DNA from: Candidatus Nomurabacteria bacterium
GTDB taxonomy: Bacteria > Patescibacteriota > Minisyncoccia > Phycocordibacterales > CALRBL01
DNA length: 64,000 bases
Assembly: GCA_963834935.1 (NCBI GenBank)
Contig: CAWIDS010000001.1
Span: forward strand, 1,338-65,337
Reading direction: 5' to 3'
Shown piece after piece: positions 3,949 to 47,764 of the stretch. Numbering within the stretch: the first letter of the stretch is position 1; each line of letters starts with the position of its first letter. A model generated the notes under the pieces. That model saw only the letters and a list, made by a program, of their open reading frames with translations. It did not search any database and had not been told where the DNA came from. The position numbers were made by a program, and so were the translations under genes.

Positions 3949-4599
3949 ATGAGCAATGAATTGCCGGAAAAGGCCATTGAAGCTGAAAAAGAAGCTACTT
4001 TGGAATTATTCAGCTTGAACGAAGAACAATCGGCTGAATTAAAAAAGCGGATCGAGAAATTCCACGGGCTTGTCCGAATCTTCATACATCCTGATACTAT
4101 TTCTCCGGATGAATATTCAAAGCAATTTCTGGGATTTGTCATGACAATCTCATCTGAAAATTCACCTCCGATTATTTTCTTGGAAGACCACAATCATGTA
4201 GAAGGTTTCAAGGAAGACTTTGAACTGATGAGGGATAAATTACCTAATCCGATTTATTTCGCTGAAACGTTACCACGATTTCCCTACCCGATCTTCCCCG
4301 GTGATACGGTTCCAAATGAAATAGTAGAATTCAGGGAAATGCCTCTTGAACAGCAAAAAAACGCAGTTAAGGGCATGAGAACGCTTGCGATCATCCTCAG
4401 AAATTTGGGTGTCAAAAAAGTCTTAGTCGGCGGAGCAAACCTTGAAATCGACGATTCCGATAGACTTCAGGAGTGCGTAGGAAATTTCGTTGAATCATTC
4501 AATATGTGCGGGGAATCCGATTTTGATATAAAAGTTTCGAACTTGACCATACCTAAAAACAGAAACGATTTAAGAGGTGTAAGGGATAAATTTTTGTAA
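3949..4599 (+). CDS. Hypothetical protein.
   Basis: ORF of 216 aa with no recognised motif. Starts after the terminator of the previous gene. Confidence 0.5.
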   Translation: MSNELPEKAIEAEKEATLELFSLNEEQSAELKKRIEKFHGLVRIFIHPDTISPDEYSKQFLGFVMTISSENSPPIIFLEDHNHVEGFKEDFELMRDKLPNPIYFAETLPRFPYPIFPGDTVPNEIVEFREMPLEQQKNAVKGMRTLAIILRNLGVKKVLVGGANLEIDDSDRLQECVGNFVESFNMCGESDFDIKVSNLTIPKNRNDLRGVRDKFL

Positions 4600-4680
4600 A
4601 ACATATGATTTCATATTTCGCTTATGGCCCAAACCAAGATGAGGCTCAAATGAGACCCGAGGCTTTACTTTTAATCCTTC

Positions 4681-5040
4681 TTGCCATATTATGCAAATCG
4701 CTTGCATAATATGAGAACCAACGTATACAAAGGACAGATACTGAAGCTGCTTAAGAAAAAGCATCTTTTGACTATCGCGGAAATTCACAAAGCTGTTCCG
4801 AATGCCGACTATTCCACGGTCTTCCGCAATGTCGAGCAGCTTCTCAAAGGCAAGCAGATCAAGAAAATCATGGTCGACAACCGGTCTATCGCGTACGAGT
4901 TTTCAAAAGACAGTCATGATCATTTTATCTGCAACGATTGCGGAAAGGTCGAATCGATTCACCTGCCCCGCAATTCAATCAAAGACCGCAAGATTGACGA
5001 TATTACCATAAGAGGCAGTTGCGGTAACTGCACAAATTAA
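4681..5040 (+). CDS. Fur-family metalloregulator (Fur/Zur/PerR-like).
   Basis: The ORF track starts at TTG 4681; the ATG at 4711 is the likely start. Winged-helix N-terminal domain, then HDHFICNDCGKV and a C-terminal CGNC. The next gene begins 1 nt after the stop. Confidence 0.8.
   Translation: MPYYANRLHNMRTNVYKGQILKLLKKKHLLTIAEIHKAVPNADYSTVFRNVEQLLKGKQIKKIMVDNRSIAYEFSKDSHDHFICNDCGKVESIHLPRNSIKDRKIDDITIRGSCGNCTN
4685..4713. promoter_or_regulatory. Perfect 12-5-12 palindrome (candidate operator) whose last triplet is the ATG of the Fur-family gene.
   Basis: CATATTATGCAA-atcgc-TTGCATAATATG. The two arms are exact reverse complements. Confidence 0.6.
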
Positions 5041-5041
5041 T

Positions 5042-5995
5042 ATGAGAATAGCTTTCGTAGGAAAAGGCGGATCAGGCAAAAGCACCCTCTCGGCGTCGTT
5101 CGCTTCATATCTCTCAAAACATACCGGCAAGCCGGTGACCGTCTTTGATGCGGACATTAATATCCACGTGCCAGAGCTTCTCGGCTTCGGTGTCATACCT
5201 TTTGAAAAGCACCTCTCGAATCCGAAGGTGTCGAAAGTGATCAAGAAGTGGCTGCTCGGCAGCAACGATATGAGCGACTCCGGCGCATTTCGCAAGTCTA
5301 CGCCACCGACACGCAAATCGAACATCATTAAGATAGAATCAATCGGAAAAACACCTGTCGGAACATTTGGGTCACATGATGGAAATCTTTCGATCTTCGC
5401 CGTTGGGACATATCAGGATGAAGACATCGGGGCAAGCTGTTATCACAATAATCTCGCTATACTTGAAAACATCTTAAGCCATACGGACGACAAGAATGGT
5501 TATGTGGTAGCTGACATGGTCGCGGGAGTAGACTCATTCGCTGGGACTCTCCATGCGCAGTTTGATCTTACCTGCCTGATAGTAGAACCGACGGTGCGAA
5601 GCATTGAGGTCTATGCCAAATACATGGAGCTTGCGAGGGAGGCTGGCGTCGCTGACAGTCTTCGCGTCATCGGGAACAAGATAAGAAGCGAGAAAGACAA
5701 AGACTTCATTCGTGCCCATATTCCACCGGAAGAAATCATCGGATACTTCACTGATGATGATCATATCCGAGATATTGATCAGGACGGTAGAGCGCTTTCA
5801 ATATCAAAGCTTAATCAAAGCAATCAGGAACTATTGAAACAGGTTCTAGAAGCCGCAGACTCTTTGCCTGATAATCGTGACACGAGGCTCAAGAAAATCT
5901 GGGACTTGCATAAGAAATATGTGGCGCAGGCCTTTGTAAAAGACAAATTTGGAGACCTGACAGATCAAATAGATTATGACTTCACATTCCGATAA
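5042..5995 (+). CDS. CooC-family (MinD/ParA-class) P-loop ATPase, metallochaperone-like.
   Basis: Deviant Walker A GKGGSGKST and a DADINIH segment. CooC-like blocks FAVGTYQDEDIGASCYHNNLAILENIL, LTCLIVEPT and VIGNKIR. The usual C-x-C position reads C-Y-H. Confidence 0.8.
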   Translation: MRIAFVGKGGSGKSTLSASFASYLSKHTGKPVTVFDADINIHVPELLGFGVIPFEKHLSNPKVSKVIKKWLLGSNDMSDSGAFRKSTPPTRKSNIIKIESIGKTPVGTFGSHDGNLSIFAVGTYQDEDIGASCYHNNLAILENILSHTDDKNGYVVADMVAGVDSFAGTLHAQFDLTCLIVEPTVRSIEVYAKYMELAREAGVADSLRVIGNKIRSEKDKDFIRAHIPPEEIIGYFTDDDHIRDIDQDGRALSISKLNQSNQELLKQVLEAADSLPDNRDTRLKKIWDLHKKYVAQAFVKDKFGDLTDQIDYDFTFR

Positions 5996-7484
5996 CAATA
6001 TTAAAAACCTCCCCGATGACGGCAAGCCGTCTTTGCTTGAGACGGAAAAAAGCAAACTGGTATACGCCGGCCCGGCTTCGATTTTGGATTATCTCAATCC
6101 CGACAATACTCCCTACACGCCGCTAATAGAAATTCCAGATCATCTTAATCCGTATCTCAAAAGCGGGGTGAGGATCTTTGCGAAGCTCATGAATGCGCTG
6201 CCTCTCGCAAACGTGAAGTCGCTTCCGGCGTACAACATGCTTCTCGATAGGAAGGAAAAAGGACCGCTGCCGGACACCATCATCGAGAACTCATCAGGTA
6301 ACACGGCATTTTCTCTTGCGGTCATTGCCCGGCTTATGGGCATACCACATACAAAAGCTGTCGTCTCTCACGAGGTAAGCCGCGGCAAACTCAACATACT
6401 GCGTCTTCTCGGTACCGAAATAATCGTCAATGACGAGCCCATTTGTCCTGATCCAAGCGATCCAACGAGCGGAATCTACAAAGCAAAGGAATGGTCAAAA
6501 GAGAACGGCTGGTTCAACCCCGGACAATACGACAACGAAGCTAATCCTGCCGCTCACTACAAATGGACAGGTCCGCAGATATGGGACCAGACAAAAAGTA
6601 AAATTTCCCTGCTCTCCACCGGTCTTGGAACTACGGGCTCAGCCGTGGGAATCGGTACATTCCTCAAGGAGAAAAATAAAGACATTAAAATTCTTGGCGT
6701 AACGCGCATCGTTAATAATCAAATACCCGGTGTTAGAACTGCCAGCCTTCTCAAAGAGGTCGCTTTTGATTGGCGATCGGTGATCGATTTTCAAGAAGAA
6801 GTCGGCACAACTGAATCGTTCAAGATGTCCATGGAGCTATGCCGGTCCGGATTATTCGTCGGACCAAGCTCAGGCTTTGCCTTGGTAGGACTTTTGAATC
6901 ATATCGCAAAGCAAAAGCTCTCCGGTGAAGAAAAAATAGCCGTCTTCATCTGTCCCGACAGTCCGTTTCCCTATATCGACGAGTATTTTCAATATCTTGA
7001 TCCCGCAGTTTTCCCAGAAATCCAGAATGAGCGACTGCTTAAGGAAAAGATTCAGATCAGCCCGTCGCAAAGTGCCGCCATCAAAGAGCTTGGCCCGCTG
7101 GAAGTGTTTGACCTTATTTTTACCGGCACACCCGATAAAGTCTGGGAAAAAATAGGAAACAAGCAAGAAGCAGATATCAAAAAAGGATTCGCTGTGATTG
7201 ATGTCCGTAACGAAGGAGAGTATGAAGACCACCACATCCCGGAATCGATCCATGTTCCCTTTCATGAACTTGATGAATTCCTCAAGAAAAACAAGACGAG
7301 CCTCGCCAGAAATGAAGCGGTCATTTTCGTCTGCAAACATGGCAATGCAAGCCGGCTCGCTGCTTACAAAGCGGAGGAACTTGGTCTCAAACCGATCAGC
7401 CTCAAAGGCGGCGATGCCGAATGGAGCAGGCTTGATCTGCCAAGAATCCGTGCTGAGAAATGCATCATCAAATTCGATTTATGA
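5976..7484 (+). CDS. Cysteine-synthase-family PLP enzyme (fold type II) fused to a C-terminal rhodanese domain.
   Basis: PLP-lysine region ANVKSLPAYNM. Glycine loop TGLGTTGSAVGIG. C-terminal rhodanese with active-site loop CKHGNAS. Overlaps the previous gene by 20 nt. Confidence 0.8.
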   Translation: MTSHSDNNIKNLPDDGKPSLLETEKSKLVYAGPASILDYLNPDNTPYTPLIEIPDHLNPYLKSGVRIFAKLMNALPLANVKSLPAYNMLLDRKEKGPLPDTIIENSSGNTAFSLAVIARLMGIPHTKAVVSHEVSRGKLNILRLLGTEIIVNDEPICPDPSDPTSGIYKAKEWSKENGWFNPGQYDNEANPAAHYKWTGPQIWDQTKSKISLLSTGLGTTGSAVGIGTFLKEKNKDIKILGVTRIVNNQIPGVRTASLLKEVAFDWRSVIDFQEEVGTTESFKMSMELCRSGLFVGPSSGFALVGLLNHIAKQKLSGEEKIAVFICPDSPFPYIDEYFQYLDPAVFPEIQNERLLKEKIQISPSQSAAIKELGPLEVFDLIFTGTPDKVWEKIGNKQEADIKKGFAVIDVRNEGEYEDHHIPESIHVPFHELDEFLKKNKTSLARNEAVIFVCKHGNASRLAAYKAEELGLKPISLKGGDAEWSRLDLPRIRAEKCIIKFDL

Positions 7485-16835: not shown

Positions 16836-18461
16836 ATGTTTGAAACATTAAAGCCCTCCTTCAAGGGTGACATTGATAGCTTGGAAAAGACACTCGACTT
16901 TTATTCGCATGATGCCAGCCTTTTCGAAATAAAGCCTCAAGTAGTGCTTTACCCGAAGGATTCAGAAGACATCAAGACCATCGTCAAATGGGTCAACGAC
17001 AACCGTGCCGCTCATCCCGAACTTTCCATCACTGCCCGCTCTGCCGGCACCGACATGTCAGGAGGGGCCATCGGCAGCTCGATTATCCTCGACTTCACCC
17101 GCTACATGAACAAAATAATCGAAGTCACGCCTGACCACGCAATTGTCATGCCCGGCTGCTACTATCGTGACTTCGATGTGGAGACCCAAAAGATACAGCG
17201 TTTCATGCCTGCCTATACCGCTTCCCGCGAGATAAATGCCGTCGGCGGAATGATAGGAAACAATAGTGGCGGAGAAAAAGCCATCAAGTATGGAAAGACT
17301 GAGCAATATATCAATTCGCTCAAAGTAGTCTTTTCAGACGGCAATGAATACGAAGTGAGACCGATGACAAAGCAGGAAATCGAGCAAAAAGGCGCAGACA
17401 GCTTCTACAAGAAGATTTTCAATCTCATAAACGATAATTACGATCAGATCATGGCTGCCAAGCCGGCTGTCTCAAAGAATTCTGCGGGATATTACCTCTG
17501 GAATGTTTATGACAGGCAGACGGGTATTTTTGACCTCTGTCGACTCATTGTCGGATCACAAGGGACGCTCGGTATCGTCACTGAAATAAATTTCAAGCTT
17601 GTTCCTACACAGCCATGCTCGAATATCCTCGTGGTATTCCTGCCTTCACTCGATGATGTCAGCAAGCTTGTGACTGAAATCCTACCTTTCAAGCCCGACA
17701 GCCTCGAAACCTACGACGACAAGAGCATGATATTAGCAGTCAGGTTCTTCTTTGATTTCTTCAAACAGCTCGGCTTCTGGGGTGCAATCAAGCTCGGCTT
17801 CCAATTCGTGCCGGAAAGCCTGATGATCATCGCCGGCGGCGTGCCAAAACTCATCCTGATGATCGAATTCACCGGACAGAACGAGGAAGAAGTGAAGAAA
17901 AAACTTGTCGAAGTCAGCGAACATATCGCCCATTTCAAATTCCATATGCATATCGCCCATTCAAGCGCGGAAGCCGATAAATACTGGAGGATACGCCACG
18001 AGAGTTTCAATCTTCTGCGCAAGCACGTCAAGAACAAGCGTACTGCGCCTTTCATCGACGACATCATTGTCAAACCGGAATTTCTTCCCGAATTCTTGCC
18101 GAAGATAAAGGTATTGCTCGACCAATACAAGCTCGACTACACCGTCCAAGGCCATCTCGGCAACGGCAATTTCCACATCATTCCTTTGATGGATCTCAAC
18201 TCGCCTTTTTCCGCAGACATCATCCTGGAACTATCCGCGAAAGTATACACGCTCGTGAACGAATATCATGGCTCGATCACCGCAGAACACAATGACGGAA
18301 TCATCCGCACCCCTTACCTCGAACAGCAATATGGAAAATCGATAGTCGCGCTTTTCCAAAAAACGAAGGACATCTTCGACCCGGATAATATCTTTAATCC
18401 CGGGAAGAAAGTCGGAGGAACGTTCGAAGACATTAAAAGAGCAATTAAAAAGAAAAATTAA
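16836..18461 (+). CDS. FAD-binding oxidase (GlcD / D-lactate dehydrogenase family).
   Basis: FAD-binding PCMH motif ARSAGTDMSGGA. C-terminal GSITAEHNDGIIRTPYL. TATAAT lies 7 nt upstream of the ATG. The ORF track used TTG at 16818. Confidence 0.8.
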   Translation: MFETLKPSFKGDIDSLEKTLDFYSHDASLFEIKPQVVLYPKDSEDIKTIVKWVNDNRAAHPELSITARSAGTDMSGGAIGSSIILDFTRYMNKIIEVTPDHAIVMPGCYYRDFDVETQKIQRFMPAYTASREINAVGGMIGNNSGGEKAIKYGKTEQYINSLKVVFSDGNEYEVRPMTKQEIEQKGADSFYKKIFNLINDNYDQIMAAKPAVSKNSAGYYLWNVYDRQTGIFDLCRLIVGSQGTLGIVTEINFKLVPTQPCSNILVVFLPSLDDVSKLVTEILPFKPDSLETYDDKSMILAVRFFFDFFKQLGFWGAIKLGFQFVPESLMIIAGGVPKLILMIEFTGQNEEEVKKKLVEVSEHIAHFKFHMHIAHSSAEADKYWRIRHESFNLLRKHVKNKRTAPFIDDIIVKPEFLPEFLPKIKVLLDQYKLDYTVQGHLGNGNFHIIPLMDLNSPFSADIILELSAKVYTLVNEYHGSITAEHNDGIIRTPYLEQQYGKSIVALFQKTKDIFDPDNIFNPGKKVGGTFEDIKRAIKKKN

Positions 18462-19520: not shown

Positions 19521-19559
19521 GCCATTCTAACACAAATGTACTTTTTGTGTTAGAATGGC
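19521..19559. promoter_or_regulatory. Perfect 16-bp inverted repeat. Each arm carries an extended -10 (TGTGTTAGAAT), one facing tRNA-Glu and one facing uppP.
   Basis: GCCATTCTAACACAAA-tgtactt-TTTGTGTTAGAATGGC. On the + strand TAGAAT ends about 11 nt before the tRNA. On the - strand TAGAAT ends 6 nt before the uppP ATG. Confidence 0.55.
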
Positions 19560-37876: not shown

Positions 37877-38947
37877 TTATTTATACCACCCCACCTTGTA
37901 TACAACAAGAGGGGTGTTTTCTTTCACTTTTTCCACTTCTTCGATGAATCTCCATGTACTGAGAACTTCCTTGTCCGACAAGAAGCTTGAGCGCTTGCCC
38001 TGTATGGCATCGGAAAAGACATTCTCATATGCCTCAGTGCCCGACGCCAAGATGATTTCCTTTTCTTCGCCCGAAAGCATGGAATACGAAATGCTCGCCT
38101 TGGTTTCAGCAAGCGCCTTGCCTCCTTGTAGAATGATTTCGATGTGAGAAGTTTCCGGCTTGTCGAGCTTTGCAGGGACAGAAAAGAATGTCTCGGTCTT
38201 GGAATCTTTCCTTACACCTTCGACATCCTTGAATCCTTCATACTGCCCGAAAAAGTATTTCTTCATGTCATCGCCCTTAGTCAAATGATCATAGACCTCA
38301 TCGCGCGCGCCCAAGCCTTTGAAGAAAGAAGAGAGCATGAAAAGGATATGATTCTGGCCAACATCGCGAAGCGCGCCCGTCTCGTCATAAAATCCTCCCC
38401 TGCCATCGACAGTGGCTTTCTCGAAAATATTGAATGATATTTTTGATATGAGGCTGAAATCGATATCTTCCATCTGCCTCAATTCTTTTTTTCCGGCGTA
38501 ATGATCTATCTTGAGGCACTGATCTTCCCTGAAAAAATCACAGCAAAGCCTAGTGAGCGATTCGGCATCGGAAAAACCCAGGCCGAATGGCTTCTCAATA
38601 AGGATGAGTGAGTGTCCTGCAGGATCGTCGCTACCTATGAGTTCAGCTCCGTGAATGGAGACAAGCACGGTGCCCATTACCGATGCCGGCAAAGCAAGAT
38701 AGAACAGATGCTTCTTATCTTTCCTCAGAGAATCCTTGAGCTTCAGAAAATCTCCAGGATTATCATACTGTCCTGAAATCGCGACATACGGAAAAGGAAC
38801 ACCGTCGATCCGTTCCGGAGCCTTGCGTGAGAAGCCGATGATCCGTGTATCATCGGGTAATCCTTTTTTTTGCTTGAGGGAAGTGAGCGCTGGAATAAGC
38901 TTCTTGTGGGCAAGGTCTCCCGATATTCCGAAAATCACTATATCCAT
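37877..38947 (-). CDS. zwf: Glucose-6-phosphate 1-dehydrogenase, short form.
   Basis: Motifs IFGISGDLAHKKLIPAL, KIDHYAGKKEL and RDVGQNHILFML. 356 aa. Confidence 0.85.
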   Translation of the reverse strand: MDIVIFGISGDLAHKKLIPALTSLKQKKGLPDDTRIIGFSRKAPERIDGVPFPYVAISGQYDNPGDFLKLKDSLRKDKKHLFYLALPASVMGTVLVSIHGAELIGSDDPAGHSLILIEKPFGLGFSDAESLTRLCCDFFREDQCLKIDHYAGKKELRQMEDIDFSLISKISFNIFEKATVDGRGGFYDETGALRDVGQNHILFMLSSFFKGLGARDEVYDHLTKGDDMKKYFFGQYEGFKDVEGVRKDSKTETFFSVPAKLDKPETSHIEIILQGGKALAETKASISYSMLSGEEKEIILASGTEAYENVFSDAIQGKRSSFLSDKEVLSTWRFIEEVEKVKENTPLVVYKVGWYK

Positions 38948-38948
38948 A

Positions 38949-39752
38949 TTATGGAATGAGCTCTATATTTATTAAAGGTATGGTTGATGAAGAAGTCGAG
39001 CTTGCATCAAGTACATCGGCAGTAGTGCTGGCATTGGAAGCAGGAGTAGAAGACGCCGTTGTAGCAGGAGTGGTGGTAGCGGCCGCCGTGACAGATGCAG
39101 TTGAAGAAGCGTTGCCTGAATCTATCGTTGATATTTCATTCTTGACCTGATTGACCTGCGTAGCAAGAGCATCGCTCGAAGAAGCAGTCGCAAGGACAGC
39201 TGCATTCGCCGTCAATGAATTAGTGAGGTCAGAAAGCGCGTCTTTTACGGTATCAGTAGCATCTTCGGAAGCAAGTACTGAGACATTTGCCTTAATGGTA
39301 TCGGCATGCTTCTGAAGATTAGTCTCGATGATGCTTTGATTCTGGGCGTTGAGCTGGCCTTTCTTCGAAAGAGTTTCCGCTTCCTGAAGACGCGTCTTCG
39401 CGTGATTTACTTCCACTTTGACTTTTGCGTCGGGGGTAATTGCGACAAAGCTGTCAAAGCCTTCGTTCACGTTAAGCTTTATGGGATAAAGCGGCTCTCC
39501 CGGCAATGCGCTTTCCGCGGCGTATGAGGTTCCGGCACAGGTCATGATGAGCAGCGCGATCGCCGCGAAAGCAATGGCTCTCTTCCGATGAGCGTAAGTA
39601 AAGAATGAAAAGACGGAGTATGGCGACACCAAGGAATATTTGCTTGGAGACAGCGAAGATCCGAGTATGGAAAAAATCATAGCTCTCTTTTCAGAAGCGG
39701 TCATAGCGACCTTCTTAGTCCTGATTATGAAATTGTGGAGTGATTTACTCAT
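38949..39752 (-). CDS. Putative anti-sigma factor-like membrane protein with a Ser/Thr/Ala-rich tail.
   Basis: Overlaps the ECF sigma gene end by 8 nt. One TM helix. Long low-complexity A/S/T C-terminus. Confidence 0.5.
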   Translation of the reverse strand: MSKSLHNFIIRTKKVAMTASEKRAMIFSILGSSLSPSKYSLVSPYSVFSFFTYAHRKRAIAFAAIALLIMTCAGTSYAAESALPGEPLYPIKLNVNEGFDSFVAITPDAKVKVEVNHAKTRLQEAETLSKKGQLNAQNQSIIETNLQKHADTIKANVSVLASEDATDTVKDALSDLTNSLTANAAVLATASSSDALATQVNQVKNEISTIDSGNASSTASVTAAATTTPATTASSTPASNASTTADVLDASSTSSSTIPLINIELIP

Positions 39753-46577: not shown

Positions 46578-46707
46578 AGTATTGAAATTACTTATAATAG
46601 GTATTTGCATTAGCGACCTAAATTTCTAATACAAAAACTTAATGTAATTATCTAACAAATAAATTGCTTACACAAACTTTTTTTCGTAAAACTGTGGATA
46701 ACTTTAG

Positions 46708-46788
46708 AAAAATAAAAGTGAAATAAATATTTTTGTTCGAGCGCCGGGACGGCTAAACCACAAAAATATTTATTTCACTTTTATTTTT
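46708..46788. repeat. 28-bp perfect inverted repeat (AT-rich arms) around a 25-nt GC-rich loop. Overlaps the dus stop codon.
   Basis: AAAAATAAAAGTGAAATAAATATTTTTG...CAAAAATATTTATTTCACTTTTATTTTT. The loop contains GCCGggaCGGC. Confidence 0.75.
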
Positions 46789-47764
46789 TTAAGATGGCGG
46801 AGACTTCAGCGAAAGAATTTGTTTCCATTAATTTTATTCGGAGTTCTTTTGCGCCATCAAAACCATTGAGATATGATTTGAAATGTTTTTTCATCAGCGC
46901 GAAATTCTTGATATCACCAAGGAGTTCATCGAAAAGCCTAGTGTGTTCCAAAAGAACCTTGATTTTCTCCTCTTCAGTAGGCTTTTTAGCCTTGCTGAAG
47001 AGCCATGGATTACCAAAAATGGCTCTGCCGAGCATGGCGCCGTCAGCTCCCGACTCTTTTACCCTTTGCTCTGCGTCCGCAAGATCAACGAGGTCGCCGT
47101 TTCCCAGAATAAAGGTCTTCACTTCATCGTCCTTCTGCATCTCATCACGGATCTTTACCACTTCATTAAGATGTTCCCATCGTGCGGGGACTTTCGACAT
47201 CTCTTTCATGGTCCGTGCATGCACAATAAGTGCATCAGGCTTTTCTGCCAGTAATTCTGGAATCCATTTATCAAGCTCGACCTTGTTGTAGCCGACACGA
47301 GTCTTTACCGAAATGCCAATCATGGGTACTCCTTTTTCTTTTGCTTCGTCTTCCGCGCCGTTGCGAAGCGCTTTGATGAGCTCGCGTGCCAGCTTCGGAT
47401 TTTTTATGAGCGATGCTCCCGCTCCTTGCTTCATCACCGCCTTGTCGGGACATCCCATATTTATATCCGCACCATCGAAACCAAGCCGCACCGCCAGTCT
47501 TCCTGCTTCATACATGTATTCAGGCTTCGAACTGAAGAACTGTGCTACGATCGGCCTCTCGCTCTCATTAAAAACAAGATCACGAAGAAGCTTTTCCTTC
47601 CCTTCTGGGTGGGCCAAAGCCAAACCATCCGCCGAGACAAATTCGGTCCACATCACGTCCGGCTTTCCATACTTCGCGATGACGCGCCGAAAAGACGTGT
47701 CTGTGACGTTCGCCATGGGCGCAAGCACCATTATCGGCTTTTTGAGTTTGTTCCAGAATGTCAT
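46781..47764 (-). CDS. dus: tRNA-dihydrouridine synthase.
   Basis: TIM-barrel Dus motifs VLAPMANVTD and MGCP. 327 aa. Confidence 0.9.
   Translation of the reverse strand: MTFWNKLKKPIMVLAPMANVTDTSFRRVIAKYGKPDVMWTEFVSADGLALAHPEGKEKLLRDLVFNESERPIVAQFFSSKPEYMYEAGRLAVRLGFDGADINMGCPDKAVMKQGAGASLIKNPKLARELIKALRNGAEDEAKEKGVPMIGISVKTRVGYNKVELDKWIPELLAEKPDALIVHARTMKEMSKVPARWEHLNEVVKIRDEMQKDDEVKTFILGNGDLVDLADAEQRVKESGADGAMLGRAIFGNPWLFSKAKKPTEEEKIKVLLEHTRLFDELLGDIKNFALMKKHFKSYLNGFDGAKELRIKLMETNSFAEVSAILKK

Follow-up and report, generated by a model that had tools for sequence, protein, structure and literature searches.

A probable autoregulatory operator of a divergent Fur-family metal sensor in Patescibacteria

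The 64 kb stretch of Candidatus Nomurabacteria DNA analyzed here (hereafter the window) contains a 29-bp perfect palindrome (12-5-12, positions 4685-4713) at the start of a gene for a small Fur-family protein, and comparison with related loci indicates that it most likely represents the autoregulatory operator of a divergent Patescibacteria Fur-family metal sensor. The palindrome is a real, conserved cis-element. Its core, ATGCAA-ATCGC-TTGCAT (6-5-6, 4691-4707), is the predicted site for a Fur-like dimer, and the 6 bp that flank it on either side are particular to this lineage or only semi-conserved. We think it probable, on comparative grounds, that a metal-loaded dimer of the Fur-like protein occupying 4685-4713, with its core contacts at 4691-4707, represses an operon that encodes the regulator itself, a CooC-like ATPase and a PLP-rhodanese fusion protein. 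The mechanism, a Fur-family repressor acting on its own promoter, is an ordinary, textbook one; the recognition sequence of this Fur-like switch is previously undescribed.

The two arms, CATATTATGCAA (4685-4696) and TTGCATAATATG (4702-4713), flank the spacer ATCGC and form an exact inverted repeat whose last triplet is the ATG at 4711-4713, precisely as a sequence-only reading of this DNA had described it. Perfect hairpin-type inverted repeats with arms of at least 12 nt number three in the whole window, and the pattern ATTATGCAA-N5-TTGCATAAT, with up to 3 mismatches allowed, occurs once against an expectation of 0.02 per shuffle. The palindrome scores 30 bits with a weight matrix of the box family described below, and the same matrix finds no second site in the 64 kb window, no other position there scoring 8 bits or more. 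Searches of the window with parts of the palindrome likewise gave no excess over chance: the TTGCATAAT half-site with 1 mismatch has 19 matches against 19.8 expected, TTGCATAATATG with 2 mismatches has 9 against 5.7, and the core with 1 mismatch has 5 against 3.05. A near-match at 38945 (38945-38956) was considered as a second site and rejected, being merely the CATAAT-ATG of a gene start.

The gene that begins within the palindrome (4711-5040, forward strand) encodes a protein of 109 aa, a 'mini-Fur', and an identical 109-aa product is annotated from ATG 4711 in public data. Its match to the Pfam model PF01475 (E=3.9e-13; 50 bits against a curated cutoff of 23.1) bears out the earlier assignment of this gene to the Fur family. 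An AF2 model of the protein (pLDDT 87.8) predicts the Fur fold, with winged-helix DNA-binding and C-terminal dimerisation domains, and all 50 matches listed in a Foldseek search of the PDB are Fur, Zur or PerR proteins, with query-normalised TM scores of up to 0.80. The protein is compact, with roughly 20 N-terminal and 10 C-terminal-domain residues missing. Residues H18, E63, H69, H71, C74, C77, C104 and C107 are invariant or nearly so in homologs, E81 is retained in at least 90% of them, and SHDHFICNDC is matched in the alignment by HHDHIICVKC of F. tularensis Fur. This pattern suggests a Cys4 structural-zinc site (C74/C77/C104/C107) together with one regulatory His/Glu site of the H-x-H/E type. 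In a PDB profile search Fur, PerR, Zur and Nur all match weakly (E 9e-10 to 4e-4), and neither this search nor the Foldseek matches listed show a preference among the four subfamilies; the NCBIfam equivalog models all fall far below their cutoffs, the best of these weak matches being to PerR models. The regulator appears to work like a Zur or Nur repressor but to belong to a Patescibacteria branch of its own.

Relatives of the Fur-like protein comprise about 85 at the level of clusters (46-80% identity), and the loci examined were 80 from metagenomes and 52 from named genomes; these do not include the source genome, the closest match being 80% identical. All or nearly all close relatives come from Patescibacteria MAGs, with labels including Paceibacteria, Kaiserbacteria, Nomurabacteria, Campbellbacteria, Tayloriibacteriota, Parcubacteria and 'Saccharibacteria'. 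An exact TGCAA-N5-TTGCA lies no more than 90 nt from the start codon in 60 of 71 distinct ortholog upstream regions, which span 38-80% protein identity, and about 100 exact cores were found in 1.33 Mb of loci compared with the 1.28 predicted by base composition. The arms of the box are invariant and its 5-nt spacer takes 38 different sequences across the relatives, the ATCGC of the window deviating from the commonest of them. The conserved element can thus be written as a 6-5-6 dyad, (A/T)TGCAA-N5-TTGCA(T/A), with AT-rich flanks; moderate conservation inside the spacer (GT-N-AC) gives the best sites according to the weight matrix the form TGCAAGT-N-ACTTGCA, a dyad with the length that Fur-family dimers recognize. 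The box is also visible in protein annotation: in the annotated form of many homologs the protein begins with additional residues, MQ[TSIYF]TCI, which back-translate to ATGCAA-N5-TTGCAT-n-ATG, and the DNA of the relatives bears this out.

The symmetry of the window's palindrome extends further than that of most of its counterparts. Outward symmetry of at least 7 bp past the 5-bp core, as in the window, is rare, being seen at only 7 of 71 unique sites. Conservation covers about 6-9 nt per arm and does not reach the leftmost CAT of the palindrome. On the left the outer bases are part of the -10 element, and on the right they extend into the start codon; that the palindrome takes in the ATG is therefore a lineage-specific coincidence. 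Judged by conservation, the 12-nt arms of the earlier reading accordingly narrow to about 6-9 nt each. One alternative would make the entire symmetry fortuitous, with a TATTAT -10 element on the left, AT-rich sequence plus an ATG on the right, and no operator. This would explain the 6 outermost nt on each side, and the gene start at 38945-38956 is another case of CATAAT followed by ATG. We nevertheless find it scarcely conceivable, as the GCAA...TTGC core is neither a promoter nor a start-codon element and yet is invariant across relatives, and as it recurs at sites without a -10/ATG context.

The relation of the box to the promoter is informative regarding its mode of action. A promoter scan places TTTACT-17-TATTAT ahead of the fur operon on the forward strand, with a -35-like hexamer TTTACT at 4664-4669 and a -10-like hexamer TATTAT at 4687-4692, which overlaps the left arm of the palindrome and is found in the same register in relatives. 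By this geometry transcription is predicted to start about 7 nt past the -10 element, at 4699-4700 on the forward strand, within the spacer of the palindrome. An alternative promoter, TTGCCA(4681)-18-CATAAT(4705-4710), has the best consensus score but was rejected, as transcription from it would start after the ATG and it is not conserved in relatives. In the relatives sharing the arrangement of the window (class A, 41 unique sequences) the -10 element is TATTAT in 37 and TATAAT in 3, always in a single register, so placed that the final T of the hexamer opens the TGCAA core; the conservation of the left arm is thus partly explained by its being the -10 element. In 34 of these 41 a TTTACT, TTTACA or TTGACT hexamer precedes the -10 element at a spacing of exactly 17 nt, with an intervening sequence that varies. 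The gap between the box and the ATG in class A is 2, 4, 5, 6, 8 or 9 nt, and this variable gap, set against a register that is fixed relative to the promoter, shows the box to be tied to the promoter rather than to the coding frame. A second class (class B), seen in about 19 more distant relatives, has a different layout: TTGCAA, the left half-site, doubles as the -35 element, TATACT or TATAAT follows 16-17 nt after it, and the ATG comes 6-7 nt further on, a spacing that implies a leaderless mRNA with the whole box upstream of the transcript. The fusion of the box with the -10 element in class A and its position over the -35 element and promoter spacer in class B together argue that it acts on DNA and not on RNA. 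The transcript of the window operon would carry an SD-less leader of about 11-12 nt. SD-less leaders that are short or absent appear to be the rule in the source genome, as an SD-like motif precedes 4 of the 63 long ORFs of the window and TATAAT is found 6-8 nt before the ATG in many.

These observations bear directly on an alternative that the sequence-only reading had itself raised, namely that the palindrome forms an RNA hairpin which sequesters the start codon and exerts translational control, possibly with an ORF that begins at TTG 4681. An RNA copy of 4675-4725 would have a folding energy of -14.1 kcal/mol (z = -5.1), its stem including the ATG, and read-through from the same-strand upstream gene (3949-4599) is conceivable. 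However, transcripts from the conserved promoter would not contain the left arm, which is its -10 element, and the class-B box lies wholly upstream of a leaderless start. Furthermore, a stem of at most 6 bp could form in the majority of relatives, the arms are invariant rather than covarying, and boxes also occur far from any start codon. Rfam gave no match with E<=1 for the window site, and a scan of the leader at one related locus (L048) was empty or insignificant. With respect to the TTG start, the box-to-ATG gap changes by non-multiples of 3, 12 of the 41 class-A sequences, that of the window among them, have the upstream ATG in another reading frame, and the homologs all align from MRTN. 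We accordingly regard the TTG 4681 start as refuted and a functional RNA hairpin as very improbable, and return to the box as a DNA element.

Further boxes in related loci indicate that the element is not confined to the regulator promoter. About 13 additional exact boxes lie away from the regulator start, in neighborhoods of up to 20 kb whose genes were identified by Pfam. In one case (L008) a box is situated 90 bp upstream of two successive genes, the first for a His-rich CobW/COG0523 GTPase and the second for a nicotianamine synthase. At four loci (L048, L054, L103 and L107) the box separates the regulator gene from an operon coding for a small Cys-rich ORF, a CooC-like ATPase and YibE/F; at these loci the YibE/F membrane protein has a His/Cys-rich tail and a ZIP transporter gene is found upstream of the regulator. 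Elsewhere boxes occur at a radical-SAM gene and before a divergently transcribed, YibE/F-associated CooC-like ATPase gene (both in L088), before MauE-like and DUF305 genes (L118), next to CobW (L059/L120), as two tandem copies (L045), and before a fur-like/ZIP operon in a locus labelled Flavobacteriaceae whose regulator is 31% identical (L116). In three of the loci with a YibE/F operon (L048, L103 and L107) a box is missing from the regulator gene itself but present at the adjacent target operon, a pattern which implies that the box travels with targets and not solely with the fur promoter, and that the motif behaves as a regulator's target site rather than a quirk of one promoter. The expectation that further half-site copies would be found near metal genes thus failed within the 64 kb window, which has none, but was borne out in related genomes. 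The original reading of the palindrome as an autoregulatory operator is supported in outline by these comparisons: relatives keep the core at the start of the gene, it coincides with promoter elements that are themselves conserved, and further copies accompany metal-homeostasis genes.

The assignment of the box to the Fur-like protein rests on their co-occurrence, and regulators of other families might in principle recognize TGCAA-type dyads, in which case a different transcription factor would bind the box and the Fur-like gene would be just one of its targets. We consider this improbable. The box co-occurs with this Fur subfamily over a range of 38-80% identity and is absent from most loci of remoter Fur homologs (L060-L080, L121-L132), with exceptions such as L059/L120, L116 and L124; no other regulator gene is conserved in the neighborhood; and the size of the dyad along with the precedent of Nur suits a Fur-family dimer.

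The genes downstream of the regulator provide the context for its possible function. The second gene (5042-5995, forward strand) begins 1 nt after the fur stop codon and encodes a CooC-like P-loop ATPase, a probable metallochaperone, and the third gene of the operon (5976-7484, forward strand), which overlaps the ATPase gene by 20 nt, encodes a PLP-dependent cysteine-synthase-like enzyme fused to a rhodanese domain (Pfam PALP 4.3e-46 and Rhodanese 2.8e-14). The closest solved relative of the ATPase is CooC1 (3kje; E 1.3e-12, profile 5.4e-27), with which it shares the MinD/ParA-type fold family; its deviant Walker A motif, GKGGSGKS, corresponds to GKGGVGKT in CooC1. It differs from CooC1 in the metal-binding motif, where its invariant C133-x-H135 aligns on the C-x-C of CooC1, giving Cys-x-His in place of Cys-x-Cys. 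The setting is also unlike that of CooC1: the gene is under a Fur-like operator, there is no CODH in the neighborhood, and it is positionally interchangeable with CobW/COG0523. The gene right after the regulator indeed varies between loci. Across 92 loci, counted without dereplication, the slot directly after the regulator (starting at about +330) is taken by the CooC-like ATPase in 53 and by a CobW GTPase in 7, and the PLP-rhodanese gene follows the ATPase in 27; YibE/F is found near the regulator in 30 loci, ZIP in 6 and NAS in 3, each of them occupying the slot after the regulator in some.

Based on these observations we propose that a metal-loaded dimer of the regulator, most likely with zinc as co-repressor, would bind ATGCAA-N5-TTGCAT and its AT-rich flanks. 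The bound site would stretch from the -10 hexamer across the predicted transcription start to the first codon, and by virtue of this span a bound repressor would block RNA polymerase and turn the operon off. With the regulator gene being part of the operon, the predicted outcome is negative autoregulation, and metal depletion would release the repressor and derepress the operon.

Regarding the metal, we give zinc about an even chance of being the signal, given the context of ZIP, COG0523 and NAS genes and the Cys-x-His motif of the ATPase, which would form a Cys2His2 site in the dimer. COG0523, ZIP/ZupT and NAS-type metallophore genes are typical members of Zur regulons (PMC6103462). The same operator and geometry could instead serve a regulator that senses nickel in the manner of Nur, Mn, Fe or Co, or peroxide in the manner of PerR. 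In favor of nickel, the core equals the Nur 6-5-6 box in its inner bases, the co-transcribed ATPase is closest to the nickel chaperone CooC1, and NAS-type metallophores carry nickel and cobalt too; in favor of peroxide, the best weak NCBIfam matches are to PerR models and a 30%-identical relative (L124) adjoins a rubrerythrin gene. Yet the protein is no nearer to Nur than to other subfamilies: Nur was matched with E=2.3e-4 (3eyy) as against 9e-10 for Fur and is absent among the 50 Foldseek matches listed. Nor did the genes beside the boxes, in neighborhoods of up to 20 kb, include nik, sodF, urease, hydrogenase or catalase/ahpC. Moreover, the ZIP, His-rich COG0523 and NAS neighbors best fit zinc, and a Cys-x-His motif would suit zinc better than the Cys4 arrangement of CooC. 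A signal other than zinc is in our estimate unlikely, though it deserves serious consideration, and zinc is retained here as the working assignment.

To our knowledge almost nothing is known on transcriptional regulation in Patescibacteria (the candidate phyla radiation, CPR), which are uncultured and have tiny genomes, and our searches of the literature on CPR with the Fur family, and on YibE/F with zinc, retrieved nothing pertinent. The interest of the system consequently lies not in the mechanism itself but in a first usable regulator-motif pair and a promoter model for these bacteria. The pairing of the regulator with (A/T)TGCAA-N5-TTGCA(T/A) offers a means of searching CPR genomes for a metal regulon, and TTTACT-17-TATTAT with short-leader or leaderless mRNAs gives a model of a Patescibacteria promoter. 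The operon also points to the uncharacterized CooC-like ATPase as a candidate metallochaperone. This raises the possibility, which we advance tentatively and with a little less than even confidence, of an undescribed, Patescibacteria-wide module for the acquisition and delivery of zinc or nickel in ultra-small host-dependent bacteria. It would combine a 109-aa Fur sensor reading a Nur-type 6-5-6 box with a new class of CooC-like Cys-x-His ATPase metallochaperones interchangeable with COG0523 GTPases, PLP-rhodanese proteins, small Cys-rich peptides and YibE/F.

Comparison with known operators helps to place this box among those of the Fur family. The alpha-proteobacterial Mur box (MRS) may resemble TGCAA...TTGCA. 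One account of the Mur box describes it as a 19-bp palindrome (PMC1698941). The canonical Fur box, GATAATGATAATCATTATC (7-1-7, TGATAAT-N-ATTATCA), has in common with the family consensus only 4 of 7 half-site positions (T, G, A and T), which agrees with the original reading that this is no canonical E. coli Fur box. Like the Fur box it is a dyad over the core promoter with AT-rich flanks, and TGCAAGT-N-ACTTGCA can be written as a 7-1-7 dyad; unlike the Fur box, its central GCAA/TTGC is family-specific and the conserved parts in the window are split by 5 non-palindromic bases.

The resemblance to Zur lies in the putative metal-loaded Fur-family repressor, in the palindromic box over the -35 or -10 element, and in the presence of genes for COG0523 GTPases, ZIP/ZupT and NAS-type synthases by the boxes or the regulator in relatives. 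The box nevertheless differs in sequence from the published Zur boxes, which are of 7-1-7, 9-1-9 and 23-bp types (PMC6103462). The operon of the window has a CooC-like ATPase and PLP-rhodanese in place of such genes, no znuABC or ribosomal-protein paralogs were seen, and Zur structures show weak similarity to the regulator (E 2.6e-5 to 3.9e-4).

The nearest parallel is with the Nur box, the only described Fur-family operator of this form that we know of. In Streptomyces coelicolor, where Nur is a nickel-responsive Fur homolog, it was defined from DNase I footprints as tTGCaa-N5-ttGCAA, a 6-5-6 element; the footprints were obtained on sodF, sodF2, nikA and nikM and the motif was contrasted with the n-1-n Fur box (PMC2691836; PMC3919588). 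The core in the window, aTGCAA-N5-TTGCAt, shares with it the 6-5-6 arrangement and five of six bases per half-site (TGCAA/TTGCA), and class-B relatives have the exact TTGCAA-N5-TTGCAA. The proposal of a recognition code of its own thus stands with respect to the Fur box and has to be qualified by this look-alike. As with Nur, the site overlaps the promoter of its target and the predicted binder is a Fur-family protein. There are also several differences. The regulator is no Nur ortholog, its match to Nur (3eyy, E=2.3e-4) being weaker than those to Fur, PerR and Zur, and it has 109 aa in comparison with the 145 residues of the 3eyy chain. Unlike Nur, it has a box on its own promoter, and no nik or sodF targets were seen among box-adjacent genes within 20 kb. 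The partial conservation of the inner spacer (GT-N-AC) further makes the best sites 8-1-8 dyads, unlike the Nur box, and the phylum is Patescibacteria as opposed to Actinobacteria. Together, these similarities and differences provide evidence that the Nur-type 6-5-6 mode of recognition is not confined to actinobacterial Nur.

Some of the loci fetched from relatives of the regulator carry longer palindromes around the conserved, predicted operator core TGCAA-N5-TTGCA (the box). The locus L044, whose regulator is 45% identical to that of the window, has at ~5945-5990 a perfect 22-1-22 palindrome enclosing the box, CAAGTATATTCTATTTGCAAGT-A-ACTTGCAAATAGAATATACTTG, which also occurs in locus L110. 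This palindrome sets mirror-image TATACT -10 elements, one on each strand, and with these the L044 palindrome may constitute a bidirectional promoter governed in both directions by a single operator. In the locus L088 one of the extra boxes (those lying away from the regulator start), at 5844-5858, is contained in a 13-5-13 palindrome, TACCCAAATGCAA-GACTT-TTGCATTTGGGTA, with convergent genes on both sides; instead of being an operator, this "box" may form a hairpin of the terminator type. A radical-SAM gene in L088 and a YcaO gene in another such locus, L089, are also found close to boxes or the regulator.

In three further loci an extra box is followed directly by a small Cys-rich ORF (L048 6491-6601, L103 10448-10570 and L107 4408-4554) and then by the ATPase and YibE/F genes. 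These small ORFs, with Cys patterns such as ...CPSCGKPKK...C..C.C, could encode metal-buffering peptides or RiPP precursors.

The window contains two strong inverted repeats besides the box palindrome, namely an AT-rich one with 33-nt arms (97% complementary) and a 23-nt loop at 46704-46792, and a perfect 16-7-16 palindrome, GCCATTCTAACACAAA/TTTGTGTTAGAATGGC, at 19521-19559. A type-IV-pilin-like protein with the N-terminus MKFFSKKKGFTLIELLVVIAIIALLSS has its C-terminal part present in duplicate (256-411 and 1872-2027), with a tail of ~98 aa identical between ORFs 183-482 and 1538-2098. The flanking sequence ...STMLRTWEDVGIEVKRGVKSLTINLE likewise recurs in ORFs 556-1035 and 2172-2387, which points to a direct repeat with a period of ~1.6 kb. 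Across the entire window just 4 of the 63 long ORFs (≥150 aa) show a Shine-Dalgarno-like motif, and in many of them (e.g. those starting at 16836, 25853 and 59494) a TATAAT-like hexamer precedes the ATG by 6-8 nt, which together suggest that leaderless or very short-leader mRNAs are widespread in this organism.

The regulator gene is followed on the same (+) strand by a gene for a MinD/ParA-fold ATPase (5042-5995), and this by one overlapping it by 20 nt (5976-7484, +), which encodes a cysteine-synthase-like PLP enzyme fused to a C-terminal rhodanese domain. The latter gene is retained 3' of the ATPase gene in 27 loci, and its product could, within this presumably metal-responsive operon, be a client of the ATPase, take part in making a metallophore or serve to transfer sulfur. 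In the relatives, CobW/COG0523 GTPases and the CooC-like ATPase trade operon position. The nearest solved relative of the ATPase is the nickel chaperone CooC1 (3kje), and we propose the ATPase as a candidate for a new class of metallochaperones. In place of the metal-binding Cys-x-Cys of CooC1 it displays, at exactly the same position, an invariant Cys133-x-His135.
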